Below, piece after piece: positions 7,717 through 55,699 of a stretch of DNA of 64,000 bases. The notes under the pieces are model-generated. The model had not been told where the DNA came from. It worked only from the letters and a program-made list of their open reading frames with translations, and made no database searches. A program made the translations under genes and the position numbers. The DNA comes from a virus. The stretch lies in the IMG/VR virus record IMGVR_UViG_3300029951_000015; one strand, 5' to 3'. How positions within the stretch are numbered: position 1 is the stretch's first letter; each line of letters begins with the position of its first letter.

Positions 7717-7775
7717 AGAATAGCATATTTATAGTTTTTTGTTGCACGAAAACGCTTTGTACAGCACTATTTGTT
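7717..7775 (-). promoter_or_regulatory. minus-strand copy of the family promoter box with a degenerate palindrome
   Basis: Minus strand reads ACAAAGCGTTTTCG-TGCAAC-AAAAAACTATAAATATGC-TATTCT. It points toward the small ORF, terS and the head genes. Confidence 0.4.
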
Positions 7776-7916
7776 CGATAACTTTCATTATGTAAACGAT
7801 ATTTTACACACACTTATCGAGCATATAAACGTTATTAATCAATGTGTTATGTGTTATATAGTGTCATTCTTAACAAGTAATTCACTGCAAAACTTACACA
7901 TACAAGGTTATCAATC

Positions 7917-8405
7917 ATGGAAATCTGGCGCGACGTTCCCGACTACATCGGCCTGTATCAAGTAAGCGACGATGGCAATGTGCGCAGTCTCAAGCGATTG
8001 AGTAATGCAGCGACCGCGGAAGGTATCAGGACTACTAAACACCTATTGAAGATTGGATCAAACAACAAAGGACGATTGCAGGTAACGCTATGCAAGCTAG
8101 GCGTCACCAGGCGGTTTCTGCTGCATCGTCTGGTGCTCGCAGCGTTTGCCGGGCCTTGTCCTGAGGGTTACGAGGGCTTATTCAAATCCGGCGATGTGAC
8201 CGACTGCAAAATCAGTAATTTGCATTGGGGAATTCGCACGGCTCGCGATGCTGGCGAAACGTCACCCCGCGCCAAGCTTGCCGAACAGGACGTTCGAGAC
8301 ATCCGCATATCGACGGACAGCGGCCGTGACCTTGCAGCGCGCTACGGCGTGTCGCAGGTGTCGATCCACCACATCAAAACCCGCGTCACGTGGAAACACA
8401 TTTAG
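7917..8405 (+). CDS. HNH homing endonuclease (NUMOD4 N-terminus)
   Basis: WRDVPDYIGLYQVSDDGNVRSL is a NUMOD4-type motif. RFLLHRLVLAAF is an HNH_3-like core. Locally lower GC. Confidence 0.8.
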   Translation: MEIWRDVPDYIGLYQVSDDGNVRSLKRLSNAATAEGIRTTKHLLKIGSNNKGRLQVTLCKLGVTRRFLLHRLVLAAFAGPCPEGYEGLFKSGDVTDCKISNLHWGIRTARDAGETSPRAKLAEQDVRDIRISTDSGRDLAARYGVSQVSIHHIKTRVTWKHI

Positions 8406-8443
8406 GGGTTTATACTTACTTGTTAGCAAGTATAGAATTATGG
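8405..8443 (+). promoter_or_regulatory. early promoter box, copy 1 (divergent spacer)
   Basis: GGGTTTATACTTACTTGTTAGCAAGTATAGAAT shares its first 22 nt with the boxes at 8949 and 10415. Starts right after the HNH stop. Confidence 0.4.
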
Positions 8444-8579
8444 TCAAATTTGGGCGATTTCCTGGATTTGTACGCTCCCTTGCAGCTCACTAATACCGGC
8501 TACTTGCGACAGGCCAGGATTTTACTGGCCTCGCGAGACACGGTTTTTAACGATTTTTTCATCTTTTGGAATCCTAAAA

Positions 8580-8765
8580 ATGAGTGGAAAGGAAAGAAGC
8601 AAAACTCAGCGGGCACTAGACCTGCTAAGGGCTAACCCCGGAGTTTCGCAATACGCAGCGGCTAAGGCTATTGGCATTCACGAATCCGTAGTGTCCCGCG
8701 CTGTAAGGCGCGAAGCTGAGAAATTGAAATCAAAAGACGAGGATTCAAAGAATGAGCAAAACTAA
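8580..8765 (+). CDS. small HTH DNA-binding protein
   Basis: 61 aa. QRALDLLRANPGVSQYAAAKAIGIHESVVSRAV has a helix-turn-helix pattern. Confidence 0.5.
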   Translation: MSGKERSKTQRALDLLRANPGVSQYAAAKAIGIHESVVSRAVRREAEKLKSKDEDSKNEQN

Positions 8766-8949
8766 ACAGGCACTCGCAATCCTCAAGAGCGAGCCGGATA
8801 GGTCCGTCGCATCTGTCGCAGACCAATTAAAAATCTCTAAGCGAGTGATCTACACGGCTCTAAAGGTGCGTCGGGATACCGCGCACCTGCGCTGCCTGAC
8901 GTGCGATCAGATTTTGCCTTACATGACGCACGCGGCACAGAAAGACTAG
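8752..8949 (+). CDS. small HTH DNA-binding protein (paralog of 8580..8765)
   Basis: KQALAILKSEPDRSVASVADQLKISKRVIYTAL aligns with the neighbouring gene. The two overlap by 14 nt. Confidence 0.5.
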   Translation: MSKTKQALAILKSEPDRSVASVADQLKISKRVIYTALKVRRDTAHLRCLTCDQILPYMTHAAQKD

Positions 8950-8996
8950 GGTTTATACTTACTTGCTAGTAAAACTATAAATACGGTATTATTAGT
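8949..8996 (+). promoter_or_regulatory. family promoter box, copy 2
   Basis: TTGCTA (8963-8968), 18 nt containing AAAACTATAAATACGG, then TATTAT (8987-8992) and TAG. Confidence 0.55.
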
Positions 8997-9027
8997 TCTG
9001 TTAGCAACCAACCCCTGAGACCCGAAA

Positions 9028-9330
9028 ATGACAACCAGCACCGCCCCCGGAATCAAATTTACCGTAGTCGCACGCCGCTGGTTCCAACCGACCTACGGCA
9101 ACACGTATCATTCGGTTCGAATTTACGACGCGGAAAACAAGGAAATAGCGCATATCCCGTTTGAGTACGGGTACGGCGATCAGGCGCTTGGCACCGCTGG
9201 CGATTGGTTAGTTAGTCAAGGTCTTGTTGCAGCGCCCAAGTCAGGTAGCACTCAATCGACCCTTTGGGCGCGGGAAGAAGCTGGGATTGCGTATCATGTA
9301 TCAGACGTATCGCGCAAAAAAGACCTGTGA
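9028..9330 (+). CDS. hypothetical protein
   Basis: 100-aa ORF, first gene after promoter copy 2. RRWFQPTYGNTYHSVRIY motif; function unknown. Confidence 0.5.
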   Translation: MTTSTAPGIKFTVVARRWFQPTYGNTYHSVRIYDAENKEIAHIPFEYGYGDQALGTAGDWLVSQGLVAAPKSGSTQSTLWAREEAGIAYHVSDVSRKKDL

Positions 9331-9342
9331 GCGTCAGAACTA

Positions 9343-9381
9343 AAACCAAGCCCGGTATATCCGGGCTTAGGGCATTAGGAA
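9343..9381 (+). promoter_or_regulatory. 39-nt intergenic hairpin element, copy 1
   Basis: AAACCAAGCCCGGTATATCCGGGCTTAGGGCATTAGGAA has an 8-bp stem and no U-tract. Near-identical copy at 9749. Confidence 0.5.
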
Positions 9382-9407
9382 ACCCCTAAATTACTGGATG
9401 CTACGAA

Positions 9408-9734
9408 ATGACCGATTCACGATATAACGGATTCAAAAATTACGAAACGTGGAATGTGAACCTGTGGATTGCGAATGAGGAAAGTTCGTATCGGCGCTGG
9501 ACGGATCGCGCCGAGACGTTGGTAAAGGAAAGCGCGCTTACCGAAACTAACGACGAGTTAGCACGCACAGCAGCTATTAGCACGCTCGCCGACGAGTTGA
9601 AAGACGCGCATACGGAAGAAATGCCGGAAGTAACGGGCGTCTACTCTGATCTACTGACAGCGGCATTGCAATCCGTCGATTGGCATGAAGTCGCGGCAGA
9701 CTTGGCCGGTGATGTGAAAATAGACCGCGACTAG
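9408..9734 (+). CDS. hypothetical acidic protein
   Basis: 108-aa ORF. N-terminal FKNYETWNVNLWIANEE motif, acidic C-terminal half. Confidence 0.5.
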   Translation: MTDSRYNGFKNYETWNVNLWIANEESSYRRWTDRAETLVKESALTETNDELARTAAISTLADELKDAHTEEMPEVTGVYSDLLTAALQSVDWHEVAADLAGDVKIDRD

Positions 9735-9748
9735 CGCCCTACCCGCTC

Positions 9749-9787
9749 AAACCAAGCCCGCTATACGCGGGCTTAGGGCATTAGGAA
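9749..9787 (+). promoter_or_regulatory. 39-nt intergenic hairpin element, copy 2
   Basis: AAACCAAGCCCGCTATACGCGGGCTTAGGGCATTAGGAA. The stem differs from copy 1 by a compensatory G/C to C/G swap. Confidence 0.5.
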
Positions 9788-9810
9788 GTCACCGAACAGG
9801 AACAGAGAAA

Positions 9811-10107
9811 ATGCAGACCTTTCAAATGCACCTTATAGACGGAACCAAGGTTAAGACCGAGTGCCGCAGATTCTCGCATTACGTAGGCGCATACCGGTAC
9901 TGGTTCGCGCTACATCAGGAAAGAGGCGATGCTGTGCCTACAGTCTCTCACTTCGAATCCGGGAAACGCGTTTGTCTGTCTAAAATCGGCGCTATCGTCA
10001 ATTATTCTAGAACCGATGAACTCACTGCGGCGCGTCAGGCTATCGACGCCCTGGTTGATAAGGTCGGCGCTCAGAAAGTCCGCAGCGTCTTGGCTGCGTC
10101 GTCATGA
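9811..10107 (+). CDS. hypothetical protein
   Basis: 98-aa ORF with AGGAA upstream. Its stop overlaps the next start (ATGA). Confidence 0.5.
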   Translation: MQTFQMHLIDGTKVKTECRRFSHYVGAYRYWFALHQERGDAVPTVSHFESGKRVCLSKIGAIVNYSRTDELTAARQAIDALVDKVGAQKVRSVLAASS

Positions 10108-10409: not shown

Positions 10410-10414
10410 TGTAA

Positions 10415-10466
10415 GGGTTTATACTTACTTGCTAGTAAACTATAAATACGGCATTATTAGTTTTAT
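10415..10466 (+). promoter_or_regulatory. family promoter box, copy 3
   Basis: GGGTTTATACTTAC-TTGCTA-GTAAACTATAAATACGG-CATTAT-TAG. Confidence 0.5.
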
Positions 10467-10856: not shown

Positions 10857-10898
10857 GCACACCGAAGGGTAACGCGTGCACGCGTTACCTCAGTCCTG

Positions 10899-11168
10899 CT
10901 AGAACCGGTCAGGAACACTGCGCAGCGACAAGCGCCGGGTCGCAGGTACTTCGATGGTGCGCGACGTGTTGGACGGAAGCGGACGCACACAGCCCTTACG
11001 CTCAAGCGTGTAAAAAGTACCGAAGCCGCGAATCATTACAGTACCTTCTGCGGCTTCCTCTTTGATTGTCTCAAACGCAATCGTTAAAGCCCGCTTAATC
11101 AGCTCTTCGTCAGCGCCCGTTTCCTGGACTATCTTGTCAATAAGTCTGCGCGGCGGTGATGTGATCAT
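10899..11168 (-). CDS. HU/IHF-like DNA-bending protein
   Basis: Trimmed to ATG 11168, which has GGGAG 7 nt upstream. 89 aa. IRGFGTFYTLERKGCVRPLPSNTSRTIEVPATRRLSLR resembles the HU/IHF beta-arm. One of only two minus-strand genes in the right arm. Confidence 0.6.
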   Translation of the reverse strand: MITSPPRRLIDKIVQETGADEELIKRALTIAFETIKEEAAEGTVMIRGFGTFYTLERKGCVRPLPSNTSRTIEVPATRRLSLRSVPDRF

Positions 11169-11264
11169 TGCTAAACTCCCTAAGCCTAATTTCCCGGATT
11201 GTAGCATTGAAAGCCCTCTATTGTGCCGGTTTCGTTTCTAAAGGGCACCAAGTTTATAGATTTG

Positions 11265-11619: not shown

Positions 11620-12114
11620 AACTGATCGGTTTTCCTACCAGTACGATAAACACCCTATTTATAGGCCCTAACTGATCGGTTTTCCTACCAGTTGGTGCCT
11701 AATATTTGAGCACAAAACACCAACTGGTAGGTTTTCCTACCAGTTAGACACTCGATTTCTCCTAACTGATCGGTTTTCCTACCAGTTGGTGCTTAAATTT
11801 TAGGCAGAAAACACTAACTGATCGGTTTTCCTACCAGTTCGCAGCACTTTTCCCCTCCCTCCCAACTGATCGGTTTTCCTACCAGTTCGTTAATTCGGCC
11901 TCCTAACTGATCGGTTTTCCTACCAGTTAGCTAATTTTAGGGCACCAACTGATCGGTTTTCCTACCAGTTAGCTCGTTTCGCCCTCCTAACTGATCGGTT
12001 TTCCTACCAGTTAGCGTCATCTGCCTAAATTTTAAGCACCAACTGATCGGTTTTCCTACCAGTTCGCAGCGATATATACGCTATTTATGGTACTGATCGG
12101 TTTTCCTACCAGTT
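11620..12114 (+). repeat. array of 11 direct 24-bp repeats (iteron or centromere-like), helically phased
   Basis: AACTGATCGGTTTTCCTACCAGTT starts at 11620, 11670, 11722, 11764, 11816, 11864, 11905, 11947, 11989, 12041 and 12091. Spacings are 41-42, 48, 50 or 52 bp. Non-coding. Confidence 0.9.
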
Positions 12115-12326: not shown

Positions 12327-12357
12327 AACGAAAAGCGCTTTACAAAGCGTTTTCGTT
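12327..12357. promoter_or_regulatory. dispersed 31-bp palindrome, copy a
   Basis: AACGAAAAGCGCTTTACAAAGCGTTTTCGTT. A-tract, GC core, loop, GC core, T-tract. Confidence 0.6.
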
Positions 12358-12399: not shown

Positions 12400-12948
12400 A
12401 TGCAGCCTTACCACTCAGACGGCATTGATTATGTGTTCACTTACACCGACCCCAATAGCCGCGATCATTTCATTGTCGCAGAGGTCGCAAACGCGGAAAT
12501 CGTCTTCGCTTTTGCCGAGATCGCTGCGGCTCTTGGCTATGCACATACCGGCCGCATGTCACCGCACGAGTCCGAGCATGCGCGTATCGTCAAGATGCAG
12601 CGCCGCGAGCGGCCGGTAAAGGCCGTCACCCTGGCAGGTGTTCTAACCTGCACACCGCGAAGTGCAACCGCTGTGCACTTCGCCGACTGGATGCGCGCTG
12701 TTGTATTCCCTGTGCTTGACCTGCCCGAGTTCCCGGAAAACGACAGCCATGTGGCCAAGTTCCAGCTGGCCTATATCAACACCCAGCTGGAACAGCTGCA
12801 GAACCGCGCAGAAGCCGCTCGCAGCGTCATAGCAGCCTACGCGCCGCACACTGACGCCGAAGCCGCCCAGGAGCCGCCAAGCGATCCGCAATCCCCCGAG
12901 CGCGTCAATGCTTTGCTTGATGTCGCTTTCGGCGTGAAACGTGCCTAG
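12400..12948 (+). CDS. Bro-N-like domain protein (antirepressor-like)
   Basis: IVFAFAEIAAALGYAHTG ... AVHFADWMRAVVFPVL resembles the Bro-N pattern (DVa.aLGY ... F..Wv...VlP). 182 aa. Confidence 0.45.
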   Translation: MQPYHSDGIDYVFTYTDPNSRDHFIVAEVANAEIVFAFAEIAAALGYAHTGRMSPHESEHARIVKMQRRERPVKAVTLAGVLTCTPRSATAVHFADWMRAVVFPVLDLPEFPENDSHVAKFQLAYINTQLEQLQNRAEAARSVIAAYAPHTDAEAAQEPPSDPQSPERVNALLDVAFGVKRA

Positions 12949-13234
12949 ACGCCGTCTAGTCCTCGAAACCGTGCCTGGCACGCGGATTCGCTACATCACC
13001 CACGGCGGTAAGCCGCTATTCGTCGCCTCAGACGTTGCACGCGAAGCCGGATACAAAACCCCGGCCGCAGCGACTAGCACCTGGACCGGCTCGCTAGTCC
13101 AGTTGACCGAGACTGGCAAACAGTGGCGCTTTGTTGACGCGGACCAGGCCGCCGTAGCGCTCTACCGTTCGAAAGCCCCTGCAGCACATGCTGTTTCCGC
13201 TACGTTACAACTTTTTAACGAAAACGCTCTGTAA
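12941..13234 (+). CDS. Bro-N-like domain protein (short)
   Basis: GTG start overlapping the upstream gene by 8 nt. IRYITHGGKPLFVASDVAREAGYKTP matches the Bro-N N-terminal pattern. Its stop lies inside palindrome copy b. Confidence 0.4.
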   Translation: MPRRRLVLETVPGTRIRYITHGGKPLFVASDVAREAGYKTPAAATSTWTGSLVQLTETGKQWRFVDADQAAVALYRSKAPAAHAVSATLQLFNENAL

Positions 13235-13245
13235 AGCGCTTTTCG
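13217..13245. promoter_or_regulatory. dispersed palindrome, copy b (opposite orientation)
   Basis: AACGAAAACGCTCTGTAAAGCGCTTTTCG ends 3 nt before the -35 of promoter copy 5. Confidence 0.6.
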
Positions 13246-13248
13246 ATG

Positions 13249-19912: not shown

Positions 19913-19943
19913 AACGAAAACGCTCTGTAAAGCGCATTTCGTT
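19913..19943. promoter_or_regulatory. dispersed palindrome, copy c
   Basis: AACGAAAACGCTCTGTAAAGCGCATTTCGTT abuts the -35 of promoter copy 6. Confidence 0.6.
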
Positions 19944-27416: not shown

Positions 27417-27422
27417 TCAACA

Positions 27423-27486
27423 CATATAGCGTCAGTGCTATATAGCGTGCTATATGCAATGCTACACATACACGGTGCTATATAGC
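27423..27486. repeat. cluster of GCTATATAGC palindromes upstream of parA
   Basis: Perfect 10-bp palindromes at 27437-27446 and 27477-27486. Degenerate copies at 27423-27430, 27449-27458 and 27461-27470. Confidence 0.6.
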
Positions 27487-27510
27487 ATGATGTATCAGCG
27501 TAGTGGAATG

Positions 27511-27545
27511 CCAACACAAAACTATAAATACGGCATTTATCACTT
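27511..27545 (+). promoter_or_regulatory. family promoter box, copy 7 (weak -35)
   Basis: CAACAC-AAAACTATAAATACGG-CATTTA, about 70 nt upstream of parA. Confidence 0.4.
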
Positions 27546-27609
27546 AAACGTTTGACTCGCCGAACTGACGCCGCTAATCTGGTAGATGGGTTAATCACAT
27601 GGAGCGGTG

Positions 27610-28260
27610 ATGCTATATACGTTTGGTGCAGAGAAGGGTGGAGTGGGTAAGTCCACGCTCGCGGAAGAGATGGCCGTGGAGCGTGCGAGTAGGGGATTTG
27701 AGACCCTACTGGTCGACCTAGACCCGCAGCGCACGACAACTGAGTGGGCCGCCGCGCGAGTCTATAACGAGGTGGTTCCACAGATCGTGTGTGTGTCGAA
27801 GGGTAAGAGCCTTACGAAAGAGCTTATCAAGATGCGCGAGGCGTTCGACACAGTGATCGTGGATATTGGCGGTAAAGACACACGGGACTTGCGCGAGGCT
27901 ATTGTCATTGCAGACAAGACCATCGTACCGATCAAGCCGTCGCCGGCAGACCTACGCACGTTCCCGGACTTCGCAGACTTTATCCGGCGCATCAACGCTG
28001 AGATTGAGACGCCCAAAGACGTGTGCGTGGTGCTCAACATGGTCAACGGGTCGAGCAACCAGTTCAAACGGTTCACGGACGGATTCGCGGAGTTCAGCGA
28101 CTGTATGAAGCTGCTGGATTCGCGTGTTTGCGAGCGCGTCGCGTATCAGAACGCATATGAGGCAGGGAAGGGCGTTCGTGAGCTGTCTCGTAGCGAGTAT
28201 GACCCCAAAGCCGCAGCTGAAATTGAGAGCCTTTATCTGGAGATTTTCGGAAATGAGTAA
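27610..28260 (+). CDS. parA: ParA-type partition ATPase (small, type Ib-like)
   Basis: Deviant Walker A GAEKGGVGKST and LLVDLDPQ. About 216 aa with no N-terminal HTH. GGAG lies 5 nt before ATG 27610. Confidence 0.8.
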   Translation: MLYTFGAEKGGVGKSTLAEEMAVERASRGFETLLVDLDPQRTTTEWAAARVYNEVVPQIVCVSKGKSLTKELIKMREAFDTVIVDIGGKDTRDLREAIVIADKTIVPIKPSPADLRTFPDFADFIRRINAEIETPKDVCVVLNMVNGSSNQFKRFTDGFAEFSDCMKLLDSRVCERVAYQNAYEAGKGVRELSRSEYDPKAAAEIESLYLEIFGNE

Positions 28261-28633
28261 GCCCATGACCGCGCGCCCCAGGGCCGCAACGCCGGAAGAG
28301 ACCTTGGCCAAAGTCCAGGGGATTATCAACGAGGTCCCGCCGGCAGCTGAGGCGCTGCCAGCCCCCGCACCTGTAGCAGCCACGCAACAGCAGGAAGCGC
28401 CGCCGGCCGCGGCTCTTGAAGCAGAAACCGCAGCACCGGCAACTGATTGGCGCGTGTTGCCGAAGAAGGTGCCGACGACGCAGTTCAACGTTCGCATTCG
28501 CTCTGATCTGCACGAAGTTTTGAACGAGCTGGCGACATACACGCCAGGCGAAAGCATGACTAAGATAGCTGCGCGTGGAATCGAGACGGAAATCCGGCGG
28601 ATGATGGCAGAACGGGGCATAGAGCTAAAGTGA
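28253..28633 (+). CDS. ribbon-helix-helix centromere-binding partner (ParG-like)
   Basis: ATG 28253 overlaps the parA stop. Pro/Ala-rich linker, then TTQFNVRIRSDLHEVLNELA...SMTKIAARGIETEIRRM, which fits a strand-helix-helix layout. Confidence 0.5.
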   Translation: MSKPMTARPRAATPEETLAKVQGIINEVPPAAEALPAPAPVAATQQQEAPPAAALEAETAAPATDWRVLPKKVPTTQFNVRIRSDLHEVLNELATYTPGESMTKIAARGIETEIRRMMAERGIELK

Positions 28634-28677
28634 GTGCTCACTAACAAAGGTTTTGCCCCTTTTCTGCTAAACCGGTT

Positions 28678-28831
28678 TTCGTCTTTAGAGTGATCGTGAT
28701 ATTCGCCTTTTGACTGATGGTTTACAAGAGCAGAATCGCTGGTTTTCGTCTTTTGACTGATGGCTCTTTTAAAGTAGTTTCGAGGTTTGAGAGAAGGGCG
28801 CGGACGCTGCGAATATCGCCTTTAGGCTGAT
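28678..28831 (-). repeat. four inverted-orientation iterons
   Basis: TTCGYCTTTWGRSTGAT at 28678, 28702, 28745 and 28816 is the complement of the direct iterons downstream. Confidence 0.7.
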
Positions 28832-28850
28832 GATTCAAGGGGTAAACCAT

Positions 28851-28910
28851 TTATAAACATTAAAGACGATTAGGGGGCTTTCAGAAATTCTGGAAGCCCT
28901 TTGTTTATAA
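28851..28910. promoter_or_regulatory. AT-rich nested dyad between the iteron blocks
   Basis: TTATAAACA (28851-28859) pairs with TGTTTATAA (28902-28910). These enclose GGGCTTTCAG-AAATT-CTGGAAGCCC. Confidence 0.5.
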
Positions 28911-28930
28911 GGCTTTACAGGAAATGCGTT

Positions 28931-29159
28931 GTCAGGCTAAAGGCGAATATGGATGCGCCTAAAGGCGAGTTTTTGTCAGGCTAAAGGCGACATTGATCAG
29001 TCTTCAGACGAAAACCGTCAGTCATAGGGCGAATGCAGCGATCAGCCTAAAGGCGAGGTTACTCGGATCAGTCAAAAGACGAATCTAGACATCAGCCATA
29101 AGGCGAAAGAGTGCATCAGTCAAAAGGCGAACATCAAGTGCCATCAGTCTTAAGGCGAA
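28931..29159 (+). repeat. ten direct 17-bp iterons (oriV-like)
   Basis: RTCAGYCWWAAGGCGAA-like units start at 28931, 28953, 28976, 28996, 29017, 29041, 29067, 29091, 29115 and 29143. Spacing is 20-28 bp. The array ends 69 nt before the initiator gene. Confidence 0.8.
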
Positions 29160-29227
29160 CATTTCCGCTTTAATTTGATTTGGACCCCGTGCTAGAGTCC
29201 TGAAAACCAACACGCAAGAGGCCAGCG

Positions 29228-30160
29228 ATGGAAGACGCACGGCAGTTTATGGACAGGGTACACGAGGTTGCTCAGCGGGCTTCGAAGTCGGTAAAAGCTA
29301 AGCCTGAGAAAGCCTTGAAACTAAAGGTGATCCAGCAGTTGATGCTCTGGTCTGACAAGGTGAGGGGGCTTCCTAACTCGCTGGCTCGATGCGCCTTGTT
29401 CACTGTGGGAAACCGCAATGAACCGCGCCGCATGTACGCACGAGAGGTCATAGCGTCGCTGCAGGGAATCGTGATCCAGTACACGGGTGAGGAGCTGCGG
29501 CAGGACGACGAGGACGTGTTCCTTCAGATCGTCCACTTGGGTCGGATGGTTGATGTCGGAGAGCCGTTCGTCGTCACGGGCCACATGGTTCTGACGGCGC
29601 TAGGGTGGGGCAGGTCGTCGGACAAGTACAAACGCCTCCTGGAATCCATCGGCAGACTCTCTGAGGGCACCATATGGGTCACGTACACCAACGAGGACGA
29701 AGTGGAGGCGAGCGTCGCTGCCGGCGCGGCAGCGCCTAAGAGAAAACGGAACGGTTACAACGGCCGCTTGATCGCTAAGTTGAAATGGCGAGAAGAGGGC
29801 GAAGAGTCCGAACAGGGGAAACACGTCAAATGGCAGTTCCGTCTTGACCCCGACATCATTAATCTGTTCGGCAAGGATGAATTCACGCTAGTTGACTGGG
29901 AGCAGCGCCTGTCGCTCACGTCGCTGGAGAAGTGGCTGCACAGTTTTTATTTCACACATCGCGAGCCTTACGCCTACAAGACATCGACGCTGTACACGCT
30001 CTGTGGCAGCAGCTGCGCCACACTGGCCAAGTTTCGCTACATGCTCAAGGGCGCACTCAGGAACCTGGAAGAGTCCGGCTTCTTCGAGTCGGCTTCGATA
30101 GACCCGCGGACGGATTTAGTGCAGGTTAAACGTAGGCGTCAGACCGCAATCGCAGCCTGA
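29228..30160 (+). CDS. trfA: plasmid replication initiator, TrfA-like
   Basis: VRGLPNSLARCALFTVGN, IVIQYTGEELRQDDEDVFLQIVHL and WLHSFYFTHREPYAYKTSTLYTLCGS match my memory of TrfA-family blocks. Immediately downstream of the iterons. Confidence 0.6.
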   Translation: MEDARQFMDRVHEVAQRASKSVKAKPEKALKLKVIQQLMLWSDKVRGLPNSLARCALFTVGNRNEPRRMYAREVIASLQGIVIQYTGEELRQDDEDVFLQIVHLGRMVDVGEPFVVTGHMVLTALGWGRSSDKYKRLLESIGRLSEGTIWVTYTNEDEVEASVAAGAAAPKRKRNGYNGRLIAKLKWREEGEESEQGKHVKWQFRLDPDIINLFGKDEFTLVDWEQRLSLTSLEKWLHSFYFTHREPYAYKTSTLYTLCGSSCATLAKFRYMLKGALRNLEESGFFESASIDPRTDLVQVKRRRQTAIAA

Positions 30161-30692: not shown

Positions 30693-30726
30693 TAAGTTCG
30701 ATAATTAAGATTATGTAAAATACGAG

Positions 30727-30750
30727 AGCCCCGCCAAGAGCGGGGCTTTT
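30727..30750 (+). terminator. rho-independent terminator
   Basis: AGCCCCGC-CAAGA-GCGGGGCT running into TTTT. Confidence 0.7.
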
Positions 30751-30869
30751 CATAGAGCGCTGAGGACCCTATGAAAAATTATAAGGTGCAATAAATTATA
30801 CGATACGGACGGTTACGTATCCACCCAGCAGCTGTGTACCGATCGATAGCAGAAATGCGTGACAAATAA

Positions 30870-30900
30870 AACGAAAAGCGCTCTACAAAGCGTTTTCGTT
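30870..30900. promoter_or_regulatory. dispersed palindrome, copy d (upstream of parB-like gene)
   Basis: AACGAAAAGCGCTCTACAAAGCGTTTTCGTT, followed by TGTG-TATTAT. Lies 40 nt before the parB-like start. Confidence 0.6.
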
Positions 30901-30939
30901 TGTGTATTATTCGGATACACCCAACCCCAAGGTATCCGA

Positions 30940-31878
30940 ATGGCACAAATACTTTCGATGAAACAGCGCGCCGAAGGGCACGAACCTGGCGTCAAAAAAC
31001 ACTCAAAGTACTACAAGCTGAACCCAGCGCTGCTCCTGATCGAGGAGGGCTTCAATGTGCGAATCGATACGCCGGAGGCGCGCGAGAAAATCGGTAAGAT
31101 GAAGCTAGACATCTTAGCCGGTGCGAGCATGCCGGCAATCGACGTGCGTAACGATGTAGGCGGTTCGTTCGTCGTCGACGGCCATCGGCGCACTACCGCG
31201 TTCCAAGAGCTGATCGCTGAGGGTCACATAATTCTCGAAGTGGACGTGCGCGAGCTTAATGGCAACGCCACTGGTCGCAAGCTCGGCACCGCAGTACCCC
31301 TTTCGCCGGAAGCGCAAGCTTTGGCAGACCGCGTGTTCCATATGCTCGGCACCGCGGAAGGCTCGGAACCCATATCGACGCTGGAACAAGGCATCGGCTA
31401 CCTCAAGCTCGTTAAGATCGGTATATCGCGCGCAGTGATTGCGGCCGAAGAGCACAAGTCGCAGTCGCACGTCGATCAGGCGCTGACGCTCGCCATGTCC
31501 AGTCCAGACGTACATATGCTGGTAGCCCTAGGCAAGGTTCCGGGCCGGGTAGCAATCAAAGCGATCAAGGAGCATGGCAGCGACGCAGGACCGTTCCTGC
31601 AGTCGCTGCTCGATAGATCGAAGAAAGGTAAGCTGACGCAGAAGTCTATCTCTGGAACAGCCCTTCCCCGCAAACTGGCCGACCGCTGCGAAAACACCAT
31701 CCGAACGATTTTCACGCAGTCGTTCGAAATCGCAGCGCGCGTTGCGATTCAAGACGCAAAAGATGAGGATTTCGTGAACGTGCAGATGCCCAAGGCGCAG
31801 CTCCGCGCCCTGCTGGACGCGAACGAAGAAATCGCCAAGGTTCGCACGAAAGCCGGCAGCAGTGCAGCTCCCGCGTGA
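30940..31878 (+). CDS. parB: ParB/KorB-like (ParB N-terminal domain) protein
   Basis: Trimmed to ATG 30940, which has AAGG upstream; the track start at 30859 would read through the palindrome. IDVRNDVGGSFVVDGHRRTTAFQEL matches the ParB/Srx box. Confidence 0.65.
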   Translation: MAQILSMKQRAEGHEPGVKKHSKYYKLNPALLLIEEGFNVRIDTPEAREKIGKMKLDILAGASMPAIDVRNDVGGSFVVDGHRRTTAFQELIAEGHIILEVDVRELNGNATGRKLGTAVPLSPEAQALADRVFHMLGTAEGSEPISTLEQGIGYLKLVKIGISRAVIAAEEHKSQSHVDQALTLAMSSPDVHMLVALGKVPGRVAIKAIKEHGSDAGPFLQSLLDRSKKGKLTQKSISGTALPRKLADRCENTIRTIFTQSFEIAARVAIQDAKDEDFVNVQMPKAQLRALLDANEEIAKVRTKAGSSAAPA

Positions 31879-32491: not shown

Positions 32492-32795
32492 ACGAGGCAG
32501 CTTCTTACTGCTTCCCGCCTGGCGCTGCAAGGACGGCCGGGTGCTTCTGATTCAAGACATGGAAACAAGCCATCTGACCAATACCGTCGCCATGTTGCGT
32601 CGTAAAGGCTATGTCAGCGAACAGGAGGCAGTAGACGCTCCGAGGCCTATGTCTTTCGGCGGAGAGTACGCGCAGATGTTTGCAGACGCGCAGTTTGATG
32701 TGGAAATGAACGACTGGTTGCGGCAGAAGATCCATCTCGGCCTGGGGCACCTTGAACGAGAGTTGGCGCAGCGGGCAGTAGCGCATGTGCATTGA
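32481..32795 (+). CDS. hypothetical protein
   Basis: 104 aa, 11-nt overlap with the upstream gene. Confidence 0.45.
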   Translation: MKIKRGSFLLLPAWRCKDGRVLLIQDMETSHLTNTVAMLRRKGYVSEQEAVDAPRPMSFGGEYAQMFADAQFDVEMNDWLRQKIHLGLGHLERELAQRAVAHVH

Positions 32796-32830
32796 AAAGC
32801 CCGCGCTAGACTGAACCAGCGCGGGCTTTT
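32795..32830. terminator. bidirectional rho-independent terminator
   Basis: AAAAGCCCGCGCT-loop-AGCGCGGGCTTTT has an A-tract and a T-tract. It sits between convergent genes. Confidence 0.75.
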
Positions 32831-32846: not shown

Positions 32847-33032
32847 TTACAGGTACAGCAGGGTTTTCAGCTTTTCGAGGTCGGCTTCCACGGCCGTAAT
32901 GACTTCATGATCGAGGTCTTGGAGCTTGGCCAAGATGCCGGCATGTACGGCCTTGGCTTCGGTATGTGCTTCGGGCGTGATGACTACGGCGGTCGGCAAA
33001 GTGGTGTTGGATGCTGCGGTCGGATCGGACAT
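32847..33032 (-). CDS. small minus-strand protein
   Basis: 61 aa, ATG 33032 with AAGGA upstream. It converges on the bidirectional terminator. Confidence 0.5.
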   Translation of the reverse strand: MSDPTAASNTTLPTAVVITPEAHTEAKAVHAGILAKLQDLDHEVITAVEADLEKLKTLLYL

Positions 33033-33134: not shown

Positions 33135-33165
33135 AACGAAAGGGCTTTGTAGAGCGCTTTTCGAG
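33135..33165. promoter_or_regulatory. dispersed palindrome, copy e (degenerate)
   Basis: AACGAAAGGGCTTTGTAGAGCGCTTTTCGAG, 11 nt before the -35 of promoter copy 8. Confidence 0.5.
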
Positions 33166-39620: not shown

Positions 39621-39653
39621 ATCGAAAAGCGCTCTATAGAGCGCTTTCGTTTT
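39621..39653. promoter_or_regulatory. dispersed palindrome, copy f (most symmetric)
   Basis: Contains the perfect 22-bp palindrome AAAGCGCTCTATAGAGCGCTTT (39626-39647). Confidence 0.6.
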
Positions 39654-46207: not shown

Positions 46208-49086
46208 TGCGGTTAGAATCCTCCCTTCCCCTTAGCACCCACAACCAAAGACACCACCCCATGTCTGACACATTTTTTTACCACACATCAAATAAGACAT
46301 CTGGTTGGACAGCAGCGCCGTCGTCGTCGCGCGAAGCCGTCATTGCGGCCAAGAAACCGAAGTACGTCACGGTCTTAGACCTGGACACACTGGTCAACGA
46401 CGAAACACCTCTCGAAGACACGTTGAAGATCCGTTACTCCGGTCCGTTCTACGCTGACTGGGATTGCCCGGACATTATGGAAGGCGCAGCATCCGTTAAT
46501 CGTTATCTTGACCTACTTAGTCAGGACTACGATGTAAATGTTGAGTGCGTCGCACTGTACGCCACGGGCGGCCGGGGATTTCACGCGGAGATTCCGTTCG
46601 CTGTGATGTCGGCTTCCAAAGCAGGTGTGATGTACTTGCCGTCGATCTACAAGGAAATCGCAAACGAGACGTTCGTCGAGTTCTTGGACTTGGCCGTCTA
46701 CTCAGCCAAGCGCGGCCGGATGTGGCGCACACCGAACGTCGAGCGGGAAACACCCGGTAAGTTTAAAGTGCCTATCTCGCTCGATCAAATGCGCAACATG
46801 ACGCAAGCGCTGTACGACGAGCTTTGCAGCGAGCCTCAGCCAACCCCTGAGCGCGCCGAGCCTACCCTAGCGCCGGCTTTCGCTGCCCTCTTCGCTGACC
46901 TGAAAAAGAAGGTCGAGCAGAAGTTCCGTGAGCGCAAGAACAAGAAGGGAGACGACAGCGCCGTCAAGCGCTTCAAAGGCGAGTGGCCCGAGTCGGTCTT
47001 AACGCTGATGCGCGGCGAGAACCTGAGCAAGGACGTAGGCCTGAACAAGGTAGCGCTGCAGATCGGCATCTTGTCCTGTGCTCTTGGGAAAACGCTCGAT
47101 CAGCATCTGGAAGCCTGCGAGGGGCTGATATCCACTTATAAGGGCGATGGCCACAACACGCGGTCGTCAGTACGCAATGAGCTGAAGCGCATGTACGGGT
47201 ACGCGAACGGCAACGTCGCCTACGCCTACTCGCCCGCGGCGATGGCACACATCATGGACGTGCCCCAGCTGGCCAAGGATCTGCGAGGCACAGCTGCTCA
47301 AGTGGGCGGCGACTCTAACCCTGACGATTTGAGCGACCTATCGCGCGGCCTGATCAACGGATCGAACGGCATCTACAGCATCAAAGAAGACACGCTGTAC
47401 CGCGAGACCAATTGGCACTTCGATTCCGACTCCGTTCTGGAGATCACGGACGCGGAGACTGGCGTGTCACGCGGATTCATCCTGCAGAGCCGTGACAGTG
47501 GTCGGCCGACCCAGGAAATCAACGTCGACCACGGTACGTTCGTGTCCGGCGACAAGCTAAAGGGCTTTCTGGCGTCTAAAGGCGCAGTTGCGCCGAACAT
47601 GGACACTCTCAAGGCCGGCCGCCTGCTGGCCTTGATCATGCAAAGCGCCAAGGCCAACGGCCAGATCAAGGCTCTTCCCAAGGAAGGATTCAACCTCATA
47701 GGCGATCACATGGTGTGGTGCAGCCCGAGTGGATGCTGGGCGCACAATTCGCCCGACAACTATCGCTTCAGGGCCTGTGCGGGCGGCGAAAGCGGCAATT
47801 TCAGGTCCGACGTAATGGCAGCGCCTCAGTTGAAGGATCTGGCGAGCGCGGGCGACGTGATAGACGCCCTGCTCGCCTTCAACTTGAACGATTTCACTGT
47901 GGCCGCGACCCTCGGCTGGTTCGTAGCCTGCTGGCACAAGCCGCTGCACATCGCGCTGGGCCAGTCGTTCCCAATCCTTCAAGCTTACGGCGAGTCGGGC
48001 GCGGGCAAGACCCTGCTCTGTATGCAGCTGCTCCGCATGTTCTATTTCAACGAAGCGCCTAAGGCGATGAATGCCTCACAGGGAACGGCTTACGGCCGGC
48101 GCGTCATGTTCGGCGGCGCTACCTCGATCCCGATCCTGGTCGACGAGTTCAAGCCTACGCGGATGTCGATTGAAGCAGCACGTGACTTCCGCATGACAAT
48201 CCATGAGATGTACACCCCGGCATTTCAGTCGCCGCGGGGCGGTGGTGACGCCAGGTCGAGCGCACCAGGTAACTGGGCCGAGCTGTCGCAGGACACCAAA
48301 ACCACGCCGCTGTGCTTCACAACAGAGACGGCCGAGTCCGAGACCGCGATCCAGGAACGCACGATTTCGGTGCCGTTCAGCAAGGCAGCGCGCGGCGGCA
48401 CAGCAGACGCAGCGTTCCAGAAGCTGACCGGCAACCCCGAAGTACTCGCAGCCGTTGGCAAGCTACTTCTGCAAGGCACAGCAGCTGCGAAGAGAGATAC
48501 CCTCAAAAGCCTGATCGAGCGCGGACACACAGTTGCTAAGGAGAACTTGAACCGCTCGGGCAACAGCCGGATCGTCTACAACGCGGGCGTCGCCATATCG
48601 GGCTTGGGCTTCCTCGGTATGGTTCTGCGGCACCAGATGCCTGAAGAGTTTTCCGAGCGCTTTGAGGCGCGTCTGGAGACCTTGCGCGCGGCGCTTCTTG
48701 ACGCTACCAACTACACGACCCTACAAGCCGCGCCGGAAATCGTAAAGCTGCTACGTTTCATGATCACTATTTCGCACCAGGACGAAGCGGATGCGGACCA
48801 CAACGTGCGTCTTGGCAAAGAGTACGCATACTTCGGCAAGGGTCTAGACCTCGACTTGGACGTGGATGCTTTCTACCTGCGTTACCGGACAGCGGCGACA
48901 CGGCGCAGCCAGGTTCCGGCGTTCGCAGACCCGGATACTTTCCTCGCAGCGTTGGGTTCGTCGTCGCTGCTGAAGGAGAACTCACCGCCCGATTCCGGGC
49001 TGATTAACGGCACGAATGCGCCTCGCGTTGTGCGTCTTAGCGCGATTGCACTCGAAGAGTACAAATTAGGAGCGTTTATGGCATGA
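46207..49086 (+). CDS. DNA primase-helicase fusion (AEP prim-pol N-terminus, SF3/D5-like P-loop C-terminus)
   Basis: VTVLDLDT, YATGGRGFHAEIPF and FLDLAVYSAKRGRMWRTPN match AEP motifs I-III. AYGESGAGKTL and PILVDEFK are Walker A and B. The start may instead be ATG 46261. Confidence 0.75.
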   Translation: MRLESSLPLSTHNQRHHPMSDTFFYHTSNKTSGWTAAPSSSREAVIAAKKPKYVTVLDLDTLVNDETPLEDTLKIRYSGPFYADWDCPDIMEGAASVNRYLDLLSQDYDVNVECVALYATGGRGFHAEIPFAVMSASKAGVMYLPSIYKEIANETFVEFLDLAVYSAKRGRMWRTPNVERETPGKFKVPISLDQMRNMTQALYDELCSEPQPTPERAEPTLAPAFAALFADLKKKVEQKFRERKNKKGDDSAVKRFKGEWPESVLTLMRGENLSKDVGLNKVALQIGILSCALGKTLDQHLEACEGLISTYKGDGHNTRSSVRNELKRMYGYANGNVAYAYSPAAMAHIMDVPQLAKDLRGTAAQVGGDSNPDDLSDLSRGLINGSNGIYSIKEDTLYRETNWHFDSDSVLEITDAETGVSRGFILQSRDSGRPTQEINVDHGTFVSGDKLKGFLASKGAVAPNMDTLKAGRLLALIMQSAKANGQIKALPKEGFNLIGDHMVWCSPSGCWAHNSPDNYRFRACAGGESGNFRSDVMAAPQLKDLASAGDVIDALLAFNLNDFTVAATLGWFVACWHKPLHIALGQSFPILQAYGESGAGKTLLCMQLLRMFYFNEAPKAMNASQGTAYGRRVMFGGATSIPILVDEFKPTRMSIEAARDFRMTIHEMYTPAFQSPRGGGDARSSAPGNWAELSQDTKTTPLCFTTETAESETAIQERTISVPFSKAARGGTADAAFQKLTGNPEVLAAVGKLLLQGTAAAKRDTLKSLIERGHTVAKENLNRSGNSRIVYNAGVAISGLGFLGMVLRHQMPEEFSERFEARLETLRAALLDATNYTTLQAAPEIVKLLRFMITISHQDEADADHNVRLGKEYAYFGKGLDLDLDVDAFYLRYRTAATRRSQVPAFADPDTFLAALGSSSLLKENSPPDSGLINGTNAPRVVRLSAIALEEYKLGAFMA

Positions 49087-49113
49087 AAAGCGTTGTACAA
49101 AGCGTTTTCGTTT
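49084..49113. promoter_or_regulatory. dispersed palindrome, copy g
   Basis: TGAAAAGCGTTGTACAAAGCGTTTTCGTTT overlaps the primase stop codon. Confidence 0.55.
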
Positions 49114-54600: not shown

Positions 54601-54927
54601 TGCGGAGAAATGACAAAGCTGGCTATGGGCCGTATCTGGCGCGCTCGCCTGCTGGAGCGTTTCGACGCGCAGCTGATCGCCGTGGTGCATGACGAGCTGG
54701 TGTTCTCTGTCGCCCGTGAGGACGTGGAGGCTTTCACCAAAGAGCTGCACGCCTTAATGACGCAGCGTTATGCGGACATGACCATTCCCGTCGAGTCGAG
54801 CATCGGCATCGGCCACAACTTCAAAGACTTGGTCGAGATTGGCGACCAGCCCTCACACGAAGCGATTTCTAAGGCACTGCGCGACCTGTTCCCGCAGCTG
54901 TACGAAGAAGCCGCTGAACACGCCTAA
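51634..54927 (+). CDS. polA: DNA polymerase I (5'-3' exo, 3'-5' exo and polymerase domains)
   Basis: GDKSDTLPGAKGVGEAG (FEN domain), VSIDLETS (Exo I), VVALDFKAQELRV (motif A), RGKAKTTNFASEYG (motif B), AVVHDELVF (motif C). 1097 aa. Confidence 0.9.
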   Translation: MRKRRHLIMDVSSILKACYFAGKDKEFGFEVLHNERPVWVNGWQHGRESFMNYMHAALRDLDARPMDVIFVLEGAHGTTIRRNMYSGYKQREDRHPDQISQYNLLESWLQAYFSRMGSTFVKQDGLEADDVFAYLCKNLKGEIVGLINDGDGLALMDGERVKIRYQSKIAAADENPLGPFPFEFNRLYKAIVGDKSDTLPGAKGVGEAGFLDLYVACEEDGLRALEDVINRGAWVELEDEVQHLKVLQKILDSADTVRRCYKCAGFLDALVNVPGKKLIWMPGMTLEKPEGEHKDDRFDGYYQTRRLIHSDNFAQLMASDVWAKFRQSPWVSIDLETSTPPESDDWLREVNSMEDEEDEEGNLKKAPGVDFVASKISGMGVTFGDNQQYTLYLTVDHKTDKNLTPEQLLAFINKMLDADKDIRFNVHNSAFELPVFFLNLIDLIGDDPRWDCGFFPRIDDTIFMASYVDENVKVGLKAQASLRLGYEQTSYDEVTQGRKMCELTPKEVFAYGTDDTIVTSALRTHYQHILEIENTFEIYRDVEVDAAYLVAAGMVTGINFDREAMRKQERSDDVRREAAWQIVRKYLFEKKWEGVELPAVTLEPSSMKAIFEIVTGEELKTQVRKPEKVAALMADFDGGETLAELYIQAIANNGDTSDVEAYARKYFKGEPTLNVDSPKQMLKLLYETMAFPIRVRNRPTDAAREEFGRNVAGSPKSDALAFASAKFYDKETHPEEVVVLDALHAMRSVATNRKMFYKPYRTLRHWKTGMIHGSEGQCMTVTRRFAPKKPNKAQWPKTKGDFRACIVPHHKDAVVVALDFKAQELRVIADSSGDEAMTSCFVGENKRDMHHMTGVSIAQKKIDPEINYDWFASVIEDESHPMFKVIKATRGKAKTTNFASEYGAQGPKMAETLMVPLEEAESYLDAKHQTFWRAEEWKKDEVIPAAKQRGYALTRLGARRHLAEAFASDSWGTRARAERQAVNFEIQGSCGEMTKLAMGRIWRARLLERFDAQLIAVVHDELVFSVAREDVEAFTKELHALMTQRYADMTIPVESSIGIGHNFKDLVEIGDQPSHEAISKALRDLFPQLYEEAAEHA

Positions 54928-54947
54928 CACATAACAGGACAAGAACA

Positions 54948-55178
54948 ATGCCCGACCTCGCAGACATGGCAGACGACAACATCGAGTTGGAGCTGCAATC
55001 GAACATTTACCTCGCCCGAAAGCGAGTGATCAAACCGCTGATGCCTAACAAGAAGTGCCACAACTGTGGCGACGGGGTCGCTAAAGACGAGCTGTTCTGC
55101 CCGAAGGTGGGCGAGAAAGCTTTGATGTCCGAGTGCCAAGCCGATTTCGAACGCAGGTCCACCAAAGGTCAAAAATGA
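54948..55178 (+). CDS. small zinc-finger protein (TraR/DksA-like, tentative)
   Basis: 76 aa. CHNCGDG ... C ... C. ATGA-coupled to the next gene. Confidence 0.4.
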   Translation: MPDLADMADDNIELELQSNIYLARKRVIKPLMPNKKCHNCGDGVAKDELFCPKVGEKALMSECQADFERRSTKGQK

Positions 55179-55663
55179 ACGACGCAACTGCATTTACCGA
55201 TCACAAAAAGCGCGCTGCAATCTCGAAGCGTGGGAAAGCGGCCGAGAACTCGGTCAAGCTCTACCTGGAGCGTGTACGCGAGCGTCTTGGCATCGCATTC
55301 GACGCTGAGCGGGTTCCTGACGCTCGCGCAGCTGGTGGCCGCTTCACACCCGTGACAGGCGATTTCCGGGCCTTCTACGCAGGCCGCAGCGCCAACATCG
55401 AGGTCAAGGAGGTGGACACGTCCGACCGTCTGCCGAAAAAGAACTTCTCGCGCGACCAGATCGCCCGCTGCTACACCCGCTCGCTGACCGGCGTCATCAC
55501 CATCGTGCTGATCCATCACACCAAGACCGGTGCGTGGGTCGTAGCCCCGATCAAAGATTTTTTCGACTACGACGGCCCGAGCTGGCTGACCGGTGGCTAC
55601 CCGAAATTCGTTTCTGCAGAAGCAGCTCTTGACTTTGCATTGAAGCCCCTGTTTAATGCGTGA
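55175..55663 (+). CDS. PD-(D/E)XK nuclease, possible Holliday junction resolvase
   Basis: Trimmed to ATG 55175. GDFRAFYAGRSANIEVKEV gives a D ... E-x-K arrangement. 162 aa. Confidence 0.4.
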   Translation: MNDATAFTDHKKRAAISKRGKAAENSVKLYLERVRERLGIAFDAERVPDARAAGGRFTPVTGDFRAFYAGRSANIEVKEVDTSDRLPKKNFSRDQIARCYTRSLTGVITIVLIHHTKTGAWVVAPIKDFFDYDGPSWLTGGYPKFVSAEAALDFALKPLFNA

Positions 55664-55668
55664 CGGAT

Positions 55669-55699
55669 AACGAAAAGCGCTCTACAAAGCGTTTTCGTT
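55669..55699. promoter_or_regulatory. dispersed palindrome, copy h
   Basis: AACGAAAAGCGCTCTACAAAGCGTTTTCGTT, identical to copy d. Confidence 0.6.

Follow-up and report, generated by a model that had tools for sequence, protein, structure and literature searches.

Nine dispersed copies of a 31-bp imperfect palindrome, eight of them at promoters, in an uncultivated tailed phage: candidate operators of a ParB-fold protein

Introduction

Only a few model replicons are known to carry a global network of operators, namely RK2 with KorB, P1 with C1, L5 with gp71 and N15 with SopB. The KorB operator OB of the IncP plasmid RK2 is TTTAGC(G/C)GCTAAA and its OB-proximal sites lie 4-10 bp upstream of promoters (PMC11790492). 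The C1 operators of the plasmid-prophage P1 are 22 dispersed asymmetric sites of 17 bp (PMC8546580). The repressor sites of L5 gp71, termed stoperators, number more than 20 and are found at promoters and in short intergenic gaps past stop codons. They are 13 bp long, asymmetric, bound by a monomer and oriented with transcription, and have been proposed to block both initiation and elongation (PMC9283540). The centromere sites IR1-4 of N15, a linear plasmid-prophage, are four dispersed sites of about 16 bp, and SopB partitions together with SopA (PMC7205306 and its references). Repeated intergenic elements are also found in T4-like phages, where the PeSL elements are strong-terminator stem-loops upstream of a promoter (PMC2839356, PMC4122927). 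The present analysis concerns a 31-bp imperfect palindrome which occurs nine times in 64,000 nt of the IMG/VR virus record IMGVR_UViG_3300029951_000015 (the whole stretch is referred to as the window and positions are counted from its first letter). It also concerns the ParB-like protein whose gene lies behind one of the copies.

The nine elements may be double-stranded DNA operators of one phage-encoded sequence-specific regulator, a reading which, judged from the sequence, stands at about an even balance. An operator function for some protein, whichever it may be, is slightly favored. The evidence consists of the recurrence of the palindrome, its placement, its fixed distance from promoters and its conservation upstream of the ParB-like gene.

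Results

Copies and sequence of the palindrome

The consensus of the repeat is AACGAAAAGCGCTCTACAAAGCGTTTTCGTT and each of the nine copies differs from it by 0-5 mismatches (Table 1). At up to 8 mismatches exactly nine copies were found in the window. Five were within 3 mismatches of the 31-mer given in a preliminary description of the window, where 0 were expected (100 shuffles). With a weight matrix derived from the nine copies themselves, the copies scored 42-52 bits and the next independent site 13.4 bits (11206-11236, minus strand). The dispersed copies noted in the preliminary description are real, although those placed at 7751 and 49084 start at 7745 and 49082, offsets of 6 and 2 nt. 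Its account of their arrangement was also borne out. Both orientations occur, with five copies forward and four reverse on the plus strand, or six forward and three backward relative to local transcription. Copies 30870 and 55669 are identical in sequence, and 39626-39647 within copy 39621 is a perfect 22-bp palindrome, AAAGCGCTCTATAGAGCGCTTT. All nine copies (9/9) are non-coding or on a stop codon, the overlap with a stop codon being at 13217 and 49082. The non-coding share of the window is approximately 18% by a crude gene set, and the probability of finding 9/9 copies non-coding by chance is approximately 2e-7.

Table 1. Copies of the 31-bp palindrome in the window and the genes described with them. 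Gap is the distance from the palindrome end to the -10 hexamer; centre is the position of the palindrome centre relative to the promoter.
Position	Strand	Mismatches	Gap (nt)	Centre	Context
7745..7775	-	5 (degenerate)	22, to TATTCT	about -50	upstream of the promoter of the leftward packaging/structural operon
12327..12357	+	1			central TTTACA is -35-like, 17 nt from TACAGT
12400-13234					two-gene cassette after 12327; second gene Bro-N/anti-repressor-like
13217..13247	-	3	23	about -51	overlaps stop codon of 12941-13234; ends 1 nt before -35 TTGCAC of a AAACTATAAA-type promoter
19913..19943	-	3	22	about -50	begins 6 nt past a stop codon; abuts -35 TTGTAC of a AAACTATAAA-type promoter
30870..30900	+	0 (consensus)	4		on the ParB-like gene promoter TCTACA-17-TATTAT; about 120 nt downstream of the canonical trfA-operon terminator 30727-30750
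30940..31878	+				ParB-fold and helix-turn-helix protein, 312 aa; candidate binder of the palindromes
33135..33165	-	4	33	about -61	about 300 nt downstream of the canonical terminator 32795-32830; 11 nt upstream of -35 TTGCAG
39621..39651	+	4	22	about -50	begins 26 nt past a stop codon; holds the perfect 22-bp palindrome; abuts TTATTT-16-TATATT
49082..49112	+	4			overlaps stop codon of a 959-aa gene; centred on -35 TTGTAC
55669..55699	+	0 (consensus)			begins 5 nt past a stop codon, 62 nt before the helicase gene

The outer arms of the repeat, AACGAAAA/TTTTCGTT, are symmetric about base 16 and the inner arms, GCGCT/AGCG, about 16.5, i.e., shifted by one base relative to the outer arms. The spacing is 10 bp between the CGCT/AGCG half-sites and 23 bp between the outer CGAAAA arms. 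This one-base asymmetry was present in every copy in either orientation (forward 42-52 bits vs reverse 7-18 bits). The near-invariant bases across ten sequences from three lineages were T25-T30 (TTTCGT), T15, A16 and A18 of the loop, and C3/G4.

The proposed motif scan beyond the window covered its right flank, related loci and sequence collections. The 10 kb that follow its right end (L014) had no further copy, and none of 25 related loci had a 31-mer-like site within 10 kb of its polymerase gene. On the left side, the protein encoded at 353-1231 on the minus strand had no record from which the window could be extended. The palindrome pattern had no match in viral contigs or in 185,579 species genomes. 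In JGI metagenomes it was found in the window phage and one relative and nowhere else.

A 9-mer, ATGCGTGAC, is located at 30855-30863 and 55654-55662, 6 and 4 nt to the left of the identical copies 30870 and 55669. Beside 55669 it forms the end of the upstream open reading frame and is kept in relatives; copy 30870 therefore seems to derive from 55669 by copying that took this flank along. Inverted pairs of copies bracket two cassettes. These are 12327/13217 and 30870/33135, the latter pair being 93% complementary and enclosing the ParB-like cassette. Three independent Logan assemblies (L001-L003) break exactly at the palindrome, their start corresponding to window position 30871. A 31-bp repeat defeats assembly at k=31, and short-read assemblies of this lineage fragment at these sites.

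Position relative to promoters

The gap between the palindrome end and the -10 took few values in eight of the nine copies: 3-4 nt in three, 22-23 nt in four and 33 nt in one. The 3-4 nt class also holds the copies of both relatives which carry the ParB-like gene (L005 and L004). With these gaps the palindromes are centred at about -32, about -50/-51 or about -61, and one helical turn separates the latter two positions. Most copies had been described as ending 0-12 nt before a -35. This applies to five copies, which adjoin a -35 with an overlap of up to about 3 nt or at a distance of up to 11 nt upstream. Three plus-strand copies (12327, 30870 and 49082) instead contain the -35 in their own centre, with a central hexamer T(T/C/G)TACA and a -10-like hexamer 16-17 nt further on, and 55669 has no recognisable promoter. 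The promoter at 49082 is TTGTAC-17-TACAGT.

Eight promoters of the window share one pattern, TTGCnn-AAAACTATAAA-N5-TATTAT-TAGT, which includes an exactly conserved 10-nt spacer. They are located at 8972, 10437, 11278, 13256, 19951, 27519 and 33184 on the plus strand and at 7728 on the minus strand. Palindromes 7745, 13217, 19913 and 33135 are directly upstream of promoters of this pattern, while 39621 abuts a differing promoter, TTATTT-16-TATATTTAG. In the 22-nt class some copies point with transcription and others against it, and the promoters include ones unrelated in sequence (7745 and 39621), so duplication of a single terminator-plus-promoter unit cannot explain the spacing.

Leftward promoters within the minus-oriented copies were considered and dropped, as a usable -10 was lacking and the region has just two minus-strand genes, both small and isolated. 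A LexA box (no CTGT-N8-ACAG), an IHF site (no WATCAA-N4-TTR) and an UP element were also dropped as candidates.

The ParB-like protein and its linkage to the palindrome

The protein encoded at 30940-31878 had no Pfam or NCBIfam match. It matched PHROG 1033, "ParB-like partition protein," at 1.8e-30 and also phage proteins annotated as ParB-like. The AlphaFold model had a mean pLDDT of 78.5, with values of about 80-94 over most of residues 20-230 and a dip at about 101-120. Foldseek of the model returned Noc, ParB, Spo0J and KorB at E 2e-7 to 1e-4, and the highest target-normalised TM-score (0.65) was to KorB-KorA-DNA (8qa9). The family profile matched ParB among solved structures at E 3.7e-9. 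As modelled, the protein has the N-domain plus helix-turn-helix (HTH) fold of ParB, Noc and KorB and is a DNA binder by fold. The motifs of the cytidine triphosphate (CTP) pocket are replaced, both in the alignment to ParB of M. xanthus and B. subtilis and in the family alignment. LQP is replaced by MPA, GERRxR by DGHRR (DGHCR in relatives) and ENLQR by HMLGT, with a single invariant Arg. A KorB-style CTP sliding clamp is therefore unlikely.

The preliminary description placed one copy directly upstream of this gene. The copy lies on the gene's promoter, and the arrangement is kept in two diverged relatives. These two, L005 (58% protein identity) and L004 (45%), were the only phage-type relatives of the gene that were found. 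L005 carries AACGAAAACGCTTTGTAGAGCGTTTTCGTT upstream of the gene, 4 nt from the -10 TATTAT, with nearly unchanged arms. L004 carries TACGAAAATACCTGTACAGCGAGCTTTCGTG at the same place, also 4 nt from a TATTAT; the inner stem and hairpin are lost and the outer CGAAAA/TTTCG and central TGTACA are retained. The best-conserved part of the intergenic region runs from the palindrome through the -10. The ParB-like cassette of L004 is located among otherwise unrelated genes. Both relatives have AAACTATAAAT of the shared promoter pattern upstream of the palindrome, as if the palindrome had been inserted into a promoter of this pattern. Homologs from Ralstonia and Paraburkholderia at 37-40% identity were not comparable, being located in conjugative-element contexts (relaxase, coupling protein, N6 methyltransferase). 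Their loci had GC-rich terminators and unrelated small palindromes.

An additional inverted repeat separates the -10 of the ParB-like gene from its start codon (window 30909-30940, L005 1215-1245, absent in L004). It covaries, with TTCGGATAC/GTATCCGAA in the window vs TTCGAAAACC/GGTTTTCGAA in L005, and may be a leader hairpin or a second operator. The minus strand of 30715-30823 has a promoter, TGGATA-17-TATAAT, two hairpins (-29.1 kcal/mol, z -4.9) and a T-run, and is a possible small RNA. Its second hairpin doubles as the plus-strand terminator of the trfA operon.

Folding of the palindrome

RNA folds of eight copies had energies of -9.5 to -14.7 kcal/mol and the degenerate copy 7745 had -4.6 kcal/mol; these energies need A/U pairs which would consume the U-tract. 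Canonical terminator hairpins in the same window (22252, 27122 and 32795) had -16.5 to -33 kcal/mol, with -25 kcal/mol for 32795-32830. Copies 30870 and 33135 are downstream of two strong hairpins of this kind (Table 1), so termination is already provided there. The substitutions in the ten sequences comprised 16 pair-breaking cells vs 1 compensatory, which is no better than in shuffles, and covariation gave no support for a hairpin. Terminator-like matches in these regions were no more numerous than in shuffled sequence.

Equivalent sites in related phages

The DNA polymerase defines a phage family of 55-76% identity with contigs of 57-95 kb. Three relatives whose polymerase is 73-76% identical (L018, L100 and L101) were inspected closely. 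At the site equivalent to 49082 all three have a conserved sigma-70-type promoter, TTGCAC/TTGCGT-17-TAAAGT, right after the stop codon of a 940-aa gene, and the hairpin is absent. The spacer of this promoter in L018 is AAAGCGTTTTCG, the right arm of the palindrome; this is not so in L100 and L101. At the site equivalent to 55669 only the left half and loop are present in the relatives (GTAACGCGAAAGCGTTCTACAGAG), joined directly to a covarying GC hairpin before the ribosome-binding site of the helicase gene. With no hairpin at one site and a half site at the other, the hairpin is not the conserved feature. Judged from these alignments, the full palindrome is a lineage feature laid over pre-existing promoters and not a conserved structural RNA. 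No relative of the ParB-like protein and no match to the palindrome were detected in the 90.8-kb IMG/VR contig of L018 by pattern-based scans.

The GC hairpin before the helicase ribosome-binding site is located at 55723-55748 in the window, at about 8502-8521 in L018 and at the equivalent positions in L100 and L101. Its pairing is kept through sequence change in the four phages (GGGCGTTCC/GGAACGCCC vs GGGCATCC/GGATGCCC and GGGCATTC/GAATGCCC).

The window phage and its plasmid module

The 64-kb window is part of a tailed phage of ~87.6 kb (whole phage ~88 kb) which was recovered from many metagenomes. Identical contigs reach 87,593 and 87,827 bp, and contigs from different samples are 99-100% identical to one another. 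No close DNA relative was found by megablast of 12 kb against phage and plasmid collections, and IMG/VR loci reached through the DUF8224 protein were only 23-25% identical. No Rfam family was found at gathering thresholds when the whole window was scanned. Genes for the small terminase, large terminase, portal and Mu-F-like proteins run leftward from about 7.4 kb, and the tail genes are past the right end of the window. From 7.9 kb on nearly all genes run rightward. They include those for a family-A DNA polymerase, SNF2 and Pif1-like helicases, a ligase, an SbcC-like ATPase and thymidylate synthase. The only leftward genes in this region are two small, isolated ones at 10899-11207 and 32847-33032. 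The former encodes an HU/IHF-like DNA-binding protein (Pfam 2e-8), and the degenerate 13-bit palindrome-like sequence at 11206-11236 overlaps its start. Two small HTH proteins are encoded in the early region at 8580-8765 and 8752-8949. The sequence GGGTTTATACTTACTTG occurs three times just upstream of early promoters (8406-8422, 8949-8965 and 10415-10431). Located beside the two small HTH genes, it is on sequence grounds a second operator-like repeat.

The plasmid module at 27421-30160 comprises, in order, GTGCTATATAGC repeats (27421-27495), parA, a gene for a 126-aa protein, iterons and trfA. ParA (27607-28260) matched NCBIfam ParA_partition at 6e-37, below the curated cut-off of the model. 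The start of the 126-aa gene overlaps the end of parA, and the C-terminus of its product is ribbon-helix-helix-like by eye only. At least 11 iterons, ATCAGYCWAAAGGCGAA, are arranged in two inverted clusters at 28673-29162, and TrfA is encoded at 29228-30160 (Pfam 1.6e-30). A phage with a plasmid-prophage state had been proposed, and the TrfA, iterons and ParA of such a replicon are present. Phage-plasmid is a reasonable label, with lysogeny itself inferred solely from the TrfA/ParA module. The ParB-like gene is 2.7 kb from parA, behind trfA and a terminator.

The arrangement parA-gap-trfA was found in 15 IMG/VR viral contigs (L104-L118, 17-116 kb), most with their own iterons; none had a ParB-like gene within 10 kb of it. 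Two of these TrfA-carrying contigs have dispersed short palindromes of their own, L107 at 4996, 7547 and 17671 and L109 at 5936-5967, 7866 and 8001 (AGTCAGGGCTGACT three times, and AGGTGGTTTGAACCACCT). Phage-plasmids of this kind may commonly have dispersed palindromes.

Eleven direct copies of a 24-bp imperfect palindrome, AACTGATCGGTTTTCCTACCAGTT, are found at 11620-12114, 42-52 bp apart. The array is in a 770-bp non-coding stretch just to the left of palindrome 12327 and resembles a centromere of the sopC type or a second (lytic) origin. Both this array and the GTGCTATATAGC repeats are candidate centromere repeats.

Discussion

As operators, the nine elements would tie most early, replication and packaging transcription units of the phage into one regulon. 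A protein on the -35-centred copies (12327, 30870 and 49082) would exclude RNA polymerase. At the five copies just upstream of a -35 it would be centred at about -50/-51 (7745, 13217, 19913 and 39621) or -61 (33135). Regulation from these positions could have either sign, and the poorly matched leftward promoter may be activated. Copy 55669 and the copies just past stop codons could also be protein roadblocks or weak attenuators for read-through. Within the regulon would be the packaging/structural operon, the anti-repressor-like cassette, the long operons of the early region, the operon of the ParB-like gene and those for phage replication. The parA-trfA genes would be outside it, as would the 8-11 kb early region with its own repeat. 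The repressor would then silence lytic functions while the plasmid module runs, in the manner of P1 C1 with its 22 operators (PMC8546580) and of KorB on RK2. The preliminary description had a partition protein silence the early and replication operons; for replication this can apply to the phage DNA polymerase and helicase operons only, as the parA/trfA operon carries no copy. That a protein binds, which protein it is and whether it represses or activates are inferred from the observed repeats with their placement and geometry, the fold and the linkage.

The most likely binder would be the ParB-fold HTH protein. It is the leading candidate because of the conserved linkage of its gene to a palindrome copy, and the location of its promoter inside a consensus copy suggests autoregulation. 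The pattern-based scans of IMG/VR, in which neither the gene nor the palindrome was found, count in favor of the link. The presence of the small HTH proteins, the HU/IHF-like protein and the 24-bp array keeps the assignment tentative, and it is put at clearly less than even. The proposal that it is a partition protein was not upheld, as ParA has its own small partner and 15 contigs have parA-trfA without a ParB-like gene within 10 kb.

A number of points weigh against operators bound by this protein. The elements have the form of an A-tract, a short GC stem of 4-5 bp and a T-tract. Five were detected by a permissive terminator scan, six are at operon ends with no other terminator nearby, and no promoter was recognisable at 55669. 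The asymmetry in all copies is odd for a simple symmetric dimer, with common descent or gene conversion as the alternative. The two small HTH proteins and the HU/IHF-like protein are other candidate binders, and the 24-bp array could be the true target of the ParB-like protein. The co-absence of the ParB-like gene and the palindrome in IMG/VR, including L018, concerns few relatives and pattern-based scans. The contigs of the relatives with the ParB-like gene are only 2.3 and 9.3 kb, so dispersal of the palindrome in those phages is not visible.

The preliminary description had offered minimal bidirectional terminators as the alternative to an operator network. In this explanation the copies would be weak, orientation-independent intrinsic terminators or attenuators which insulate successive operons, with the next promoter simply following. 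The location of 13217 and 49082 on stop codons and of 19913, 39621 and 55669 beginning 5-26 nt past them is in agreement with this, as are the fold energies with A/U pairs counted, the detection of several copies by the permissive scan and the lack of a promoter at 55669. The PeSL elements of T4-like phages are conserved stem-loop-plus-promoter cassettes that do terminate (PMC2839356). However, with a GC core of 4-5 pairs only, the remaining stem would use up the U-tract, and the genome has more stable canonical hairpins, two of which already precede a copy. Compensatory changes give no support, L004 loses the stem and retains the outer motifs and the position, and no hairpin is present at the 49082 site in relatives. 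The loop bases and the CG within the T-tract are invariant, the spacing to the -10 is quantised, and terminator-like matches are no more frequent than in shuffled sequence. As transcription is near-wholly rightward, a bidirectional terminator would be of no obvious use, yet both arms are kept and the copies divide 5:4 between the two orientations. As the sole explanation of the repeats termination fits poorly and is considered unlikely in that form; a weak terminator or roadblock role is possible. Of the two earlier options the promoter-linked, operator-like behavior fits the operator network.

It is similarly doubtful that the copies are operators of another regulator, be it a small HTH protein, an unrecognised repressor or a host factor, with the ParB-like protein binding elsewhere, e.g., at the 24-bp array. 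Two small HTH proteins and the HU/IHF-like protein are encoded in the early region. The 11-copy array with its 42-52 bp spacing resembles a sopC-type centromere, and a composite asymmetric site of 31 bp is unlike the 13-16 bp sites of known ParB/KorB. Against this, only the ParB-like gene is physically linked to the palindrome across three lineages, the absence of the palindrome from the species genomes indicates that it is not a host repeat, and the small HTH genes sit behind the differing repeat GGGTTTATACTTACTTG.

Least probable, and indeed improbable, is that the copies are PeSL-like recombination linkers or selfish gene-conversion repeats which flank exchangeable cassettes, with regulation secondary: the inverted pairs bracketing cassettes, the flank ATGCGTGAC common to 30870 and 55669 and coding at 55669, the asymmetry suggesting descent from one sequence, the lineage-specific full palindromes and the L004 cassette amid unrelated genes would suit it, but a 31-bp stretch offers little homology for efficient recombination, this reading accounts neither for the fixed distances to unrelated promoters nor for a site that is still upstream of the ParB-like gene where the proteins are 45-58% identical, and no cassette polymorphism is visible in the 99-100% identical contigs. 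The shared asymmetry, the common flank and the inverted cassette pairs do indicate, at the sequence level, that the copies spread by duplication or gene conversion. A secondary role in recombination, of the PeSL kind, would be consistent with such spread (PMC2839356, PMC4122927).

The fullest form of the operator reading has a ParB-fold protein without a CTP pocket as master regulator of a TrfA-type phage-plasmid. It would act at nine sites in the registers -32, -50 and -61, shutting off nearly every lytic operon in the plasmid-prophage state and blocking read-through at operon ends with no sliding, and regulator and sites would have been acquired and spread together within one lineage, with parA/trfA outside. 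This combination is speculative and on balance rather unlikely as a whole. If true, the known networks would be joined by that of an uncultivated phage-plasmid whose TrfA/iteron replicon is RK2-like and whose ParB-fold regulator has no CTP pocket, and phages would be shown to be able to employ ParB proteins as conventional repressors that occlude promoters. With nine sites, three promoter registers and L018 as a relative in which pattern-based scans found neither gene nor sites, it would be a compact system for the spread of a regulon through a phage genome.

The known systems each share part of this arrangement. N15 is also a phage-plasmid with inverted repeats scattered over its genome, and there a ParB-family protein binds them; the ParB-like gene of the window, unlike sopB, is without a ParA partner. 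The PeSL elements are likewise repeated, conserved intergenic stem-loops beside a sigma-70-type promoter with small variable genes flanked. A composite of palindrome and promoter is present at eight window sites; the hairpin is weak, holds the -35 itself in three copies and is conserved at the base level; the contigs are so similar that breakpoint polymorphism could not show. The stoperators of cluster A mycobacteriophages are also located at promoters and just past stop codons, whereas the window copies are mixed 5:4 in orientation within almost entirely rightward transcription. In P1, too, the lytic operons of a plasmid-prophage are tied by many dispersed copies of a single operator. C1 is not of the ParB fold, and no C1-like gene was identified in the window.

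The comparison with RK2 KorB, first drawn in the preliminary description, stands in part. The ParB/KorB fold and the OB-proximal-like geometry agree, and the CTP motifs, the partnership with ParA and the operator sequence differ. The window site, which is composite, 31 bp long and has a register shift, shows no relation to TTTAGCSGCTAAA, and in three copies its centre is on the -35. In the protein, DGHRR and HMLGT take the place of GERRxR and ENLQR. The ParB-like gene is not in an operon with ParA (IncC in RK2), which here has its small partner, no KorA-like partner was recognised, and the replicon is that of a tailed phage. In both replicons a regulator with a ParB fold and an HTH domain is found with dispersed palindromes near promoters, one of them at the regulator's own promoter, and with TrfA and iterons. 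If the operator reading is true in its fullest form, the window phage would carry a phage counterpart of the RK2 KorB regulon, one that does without sliding.

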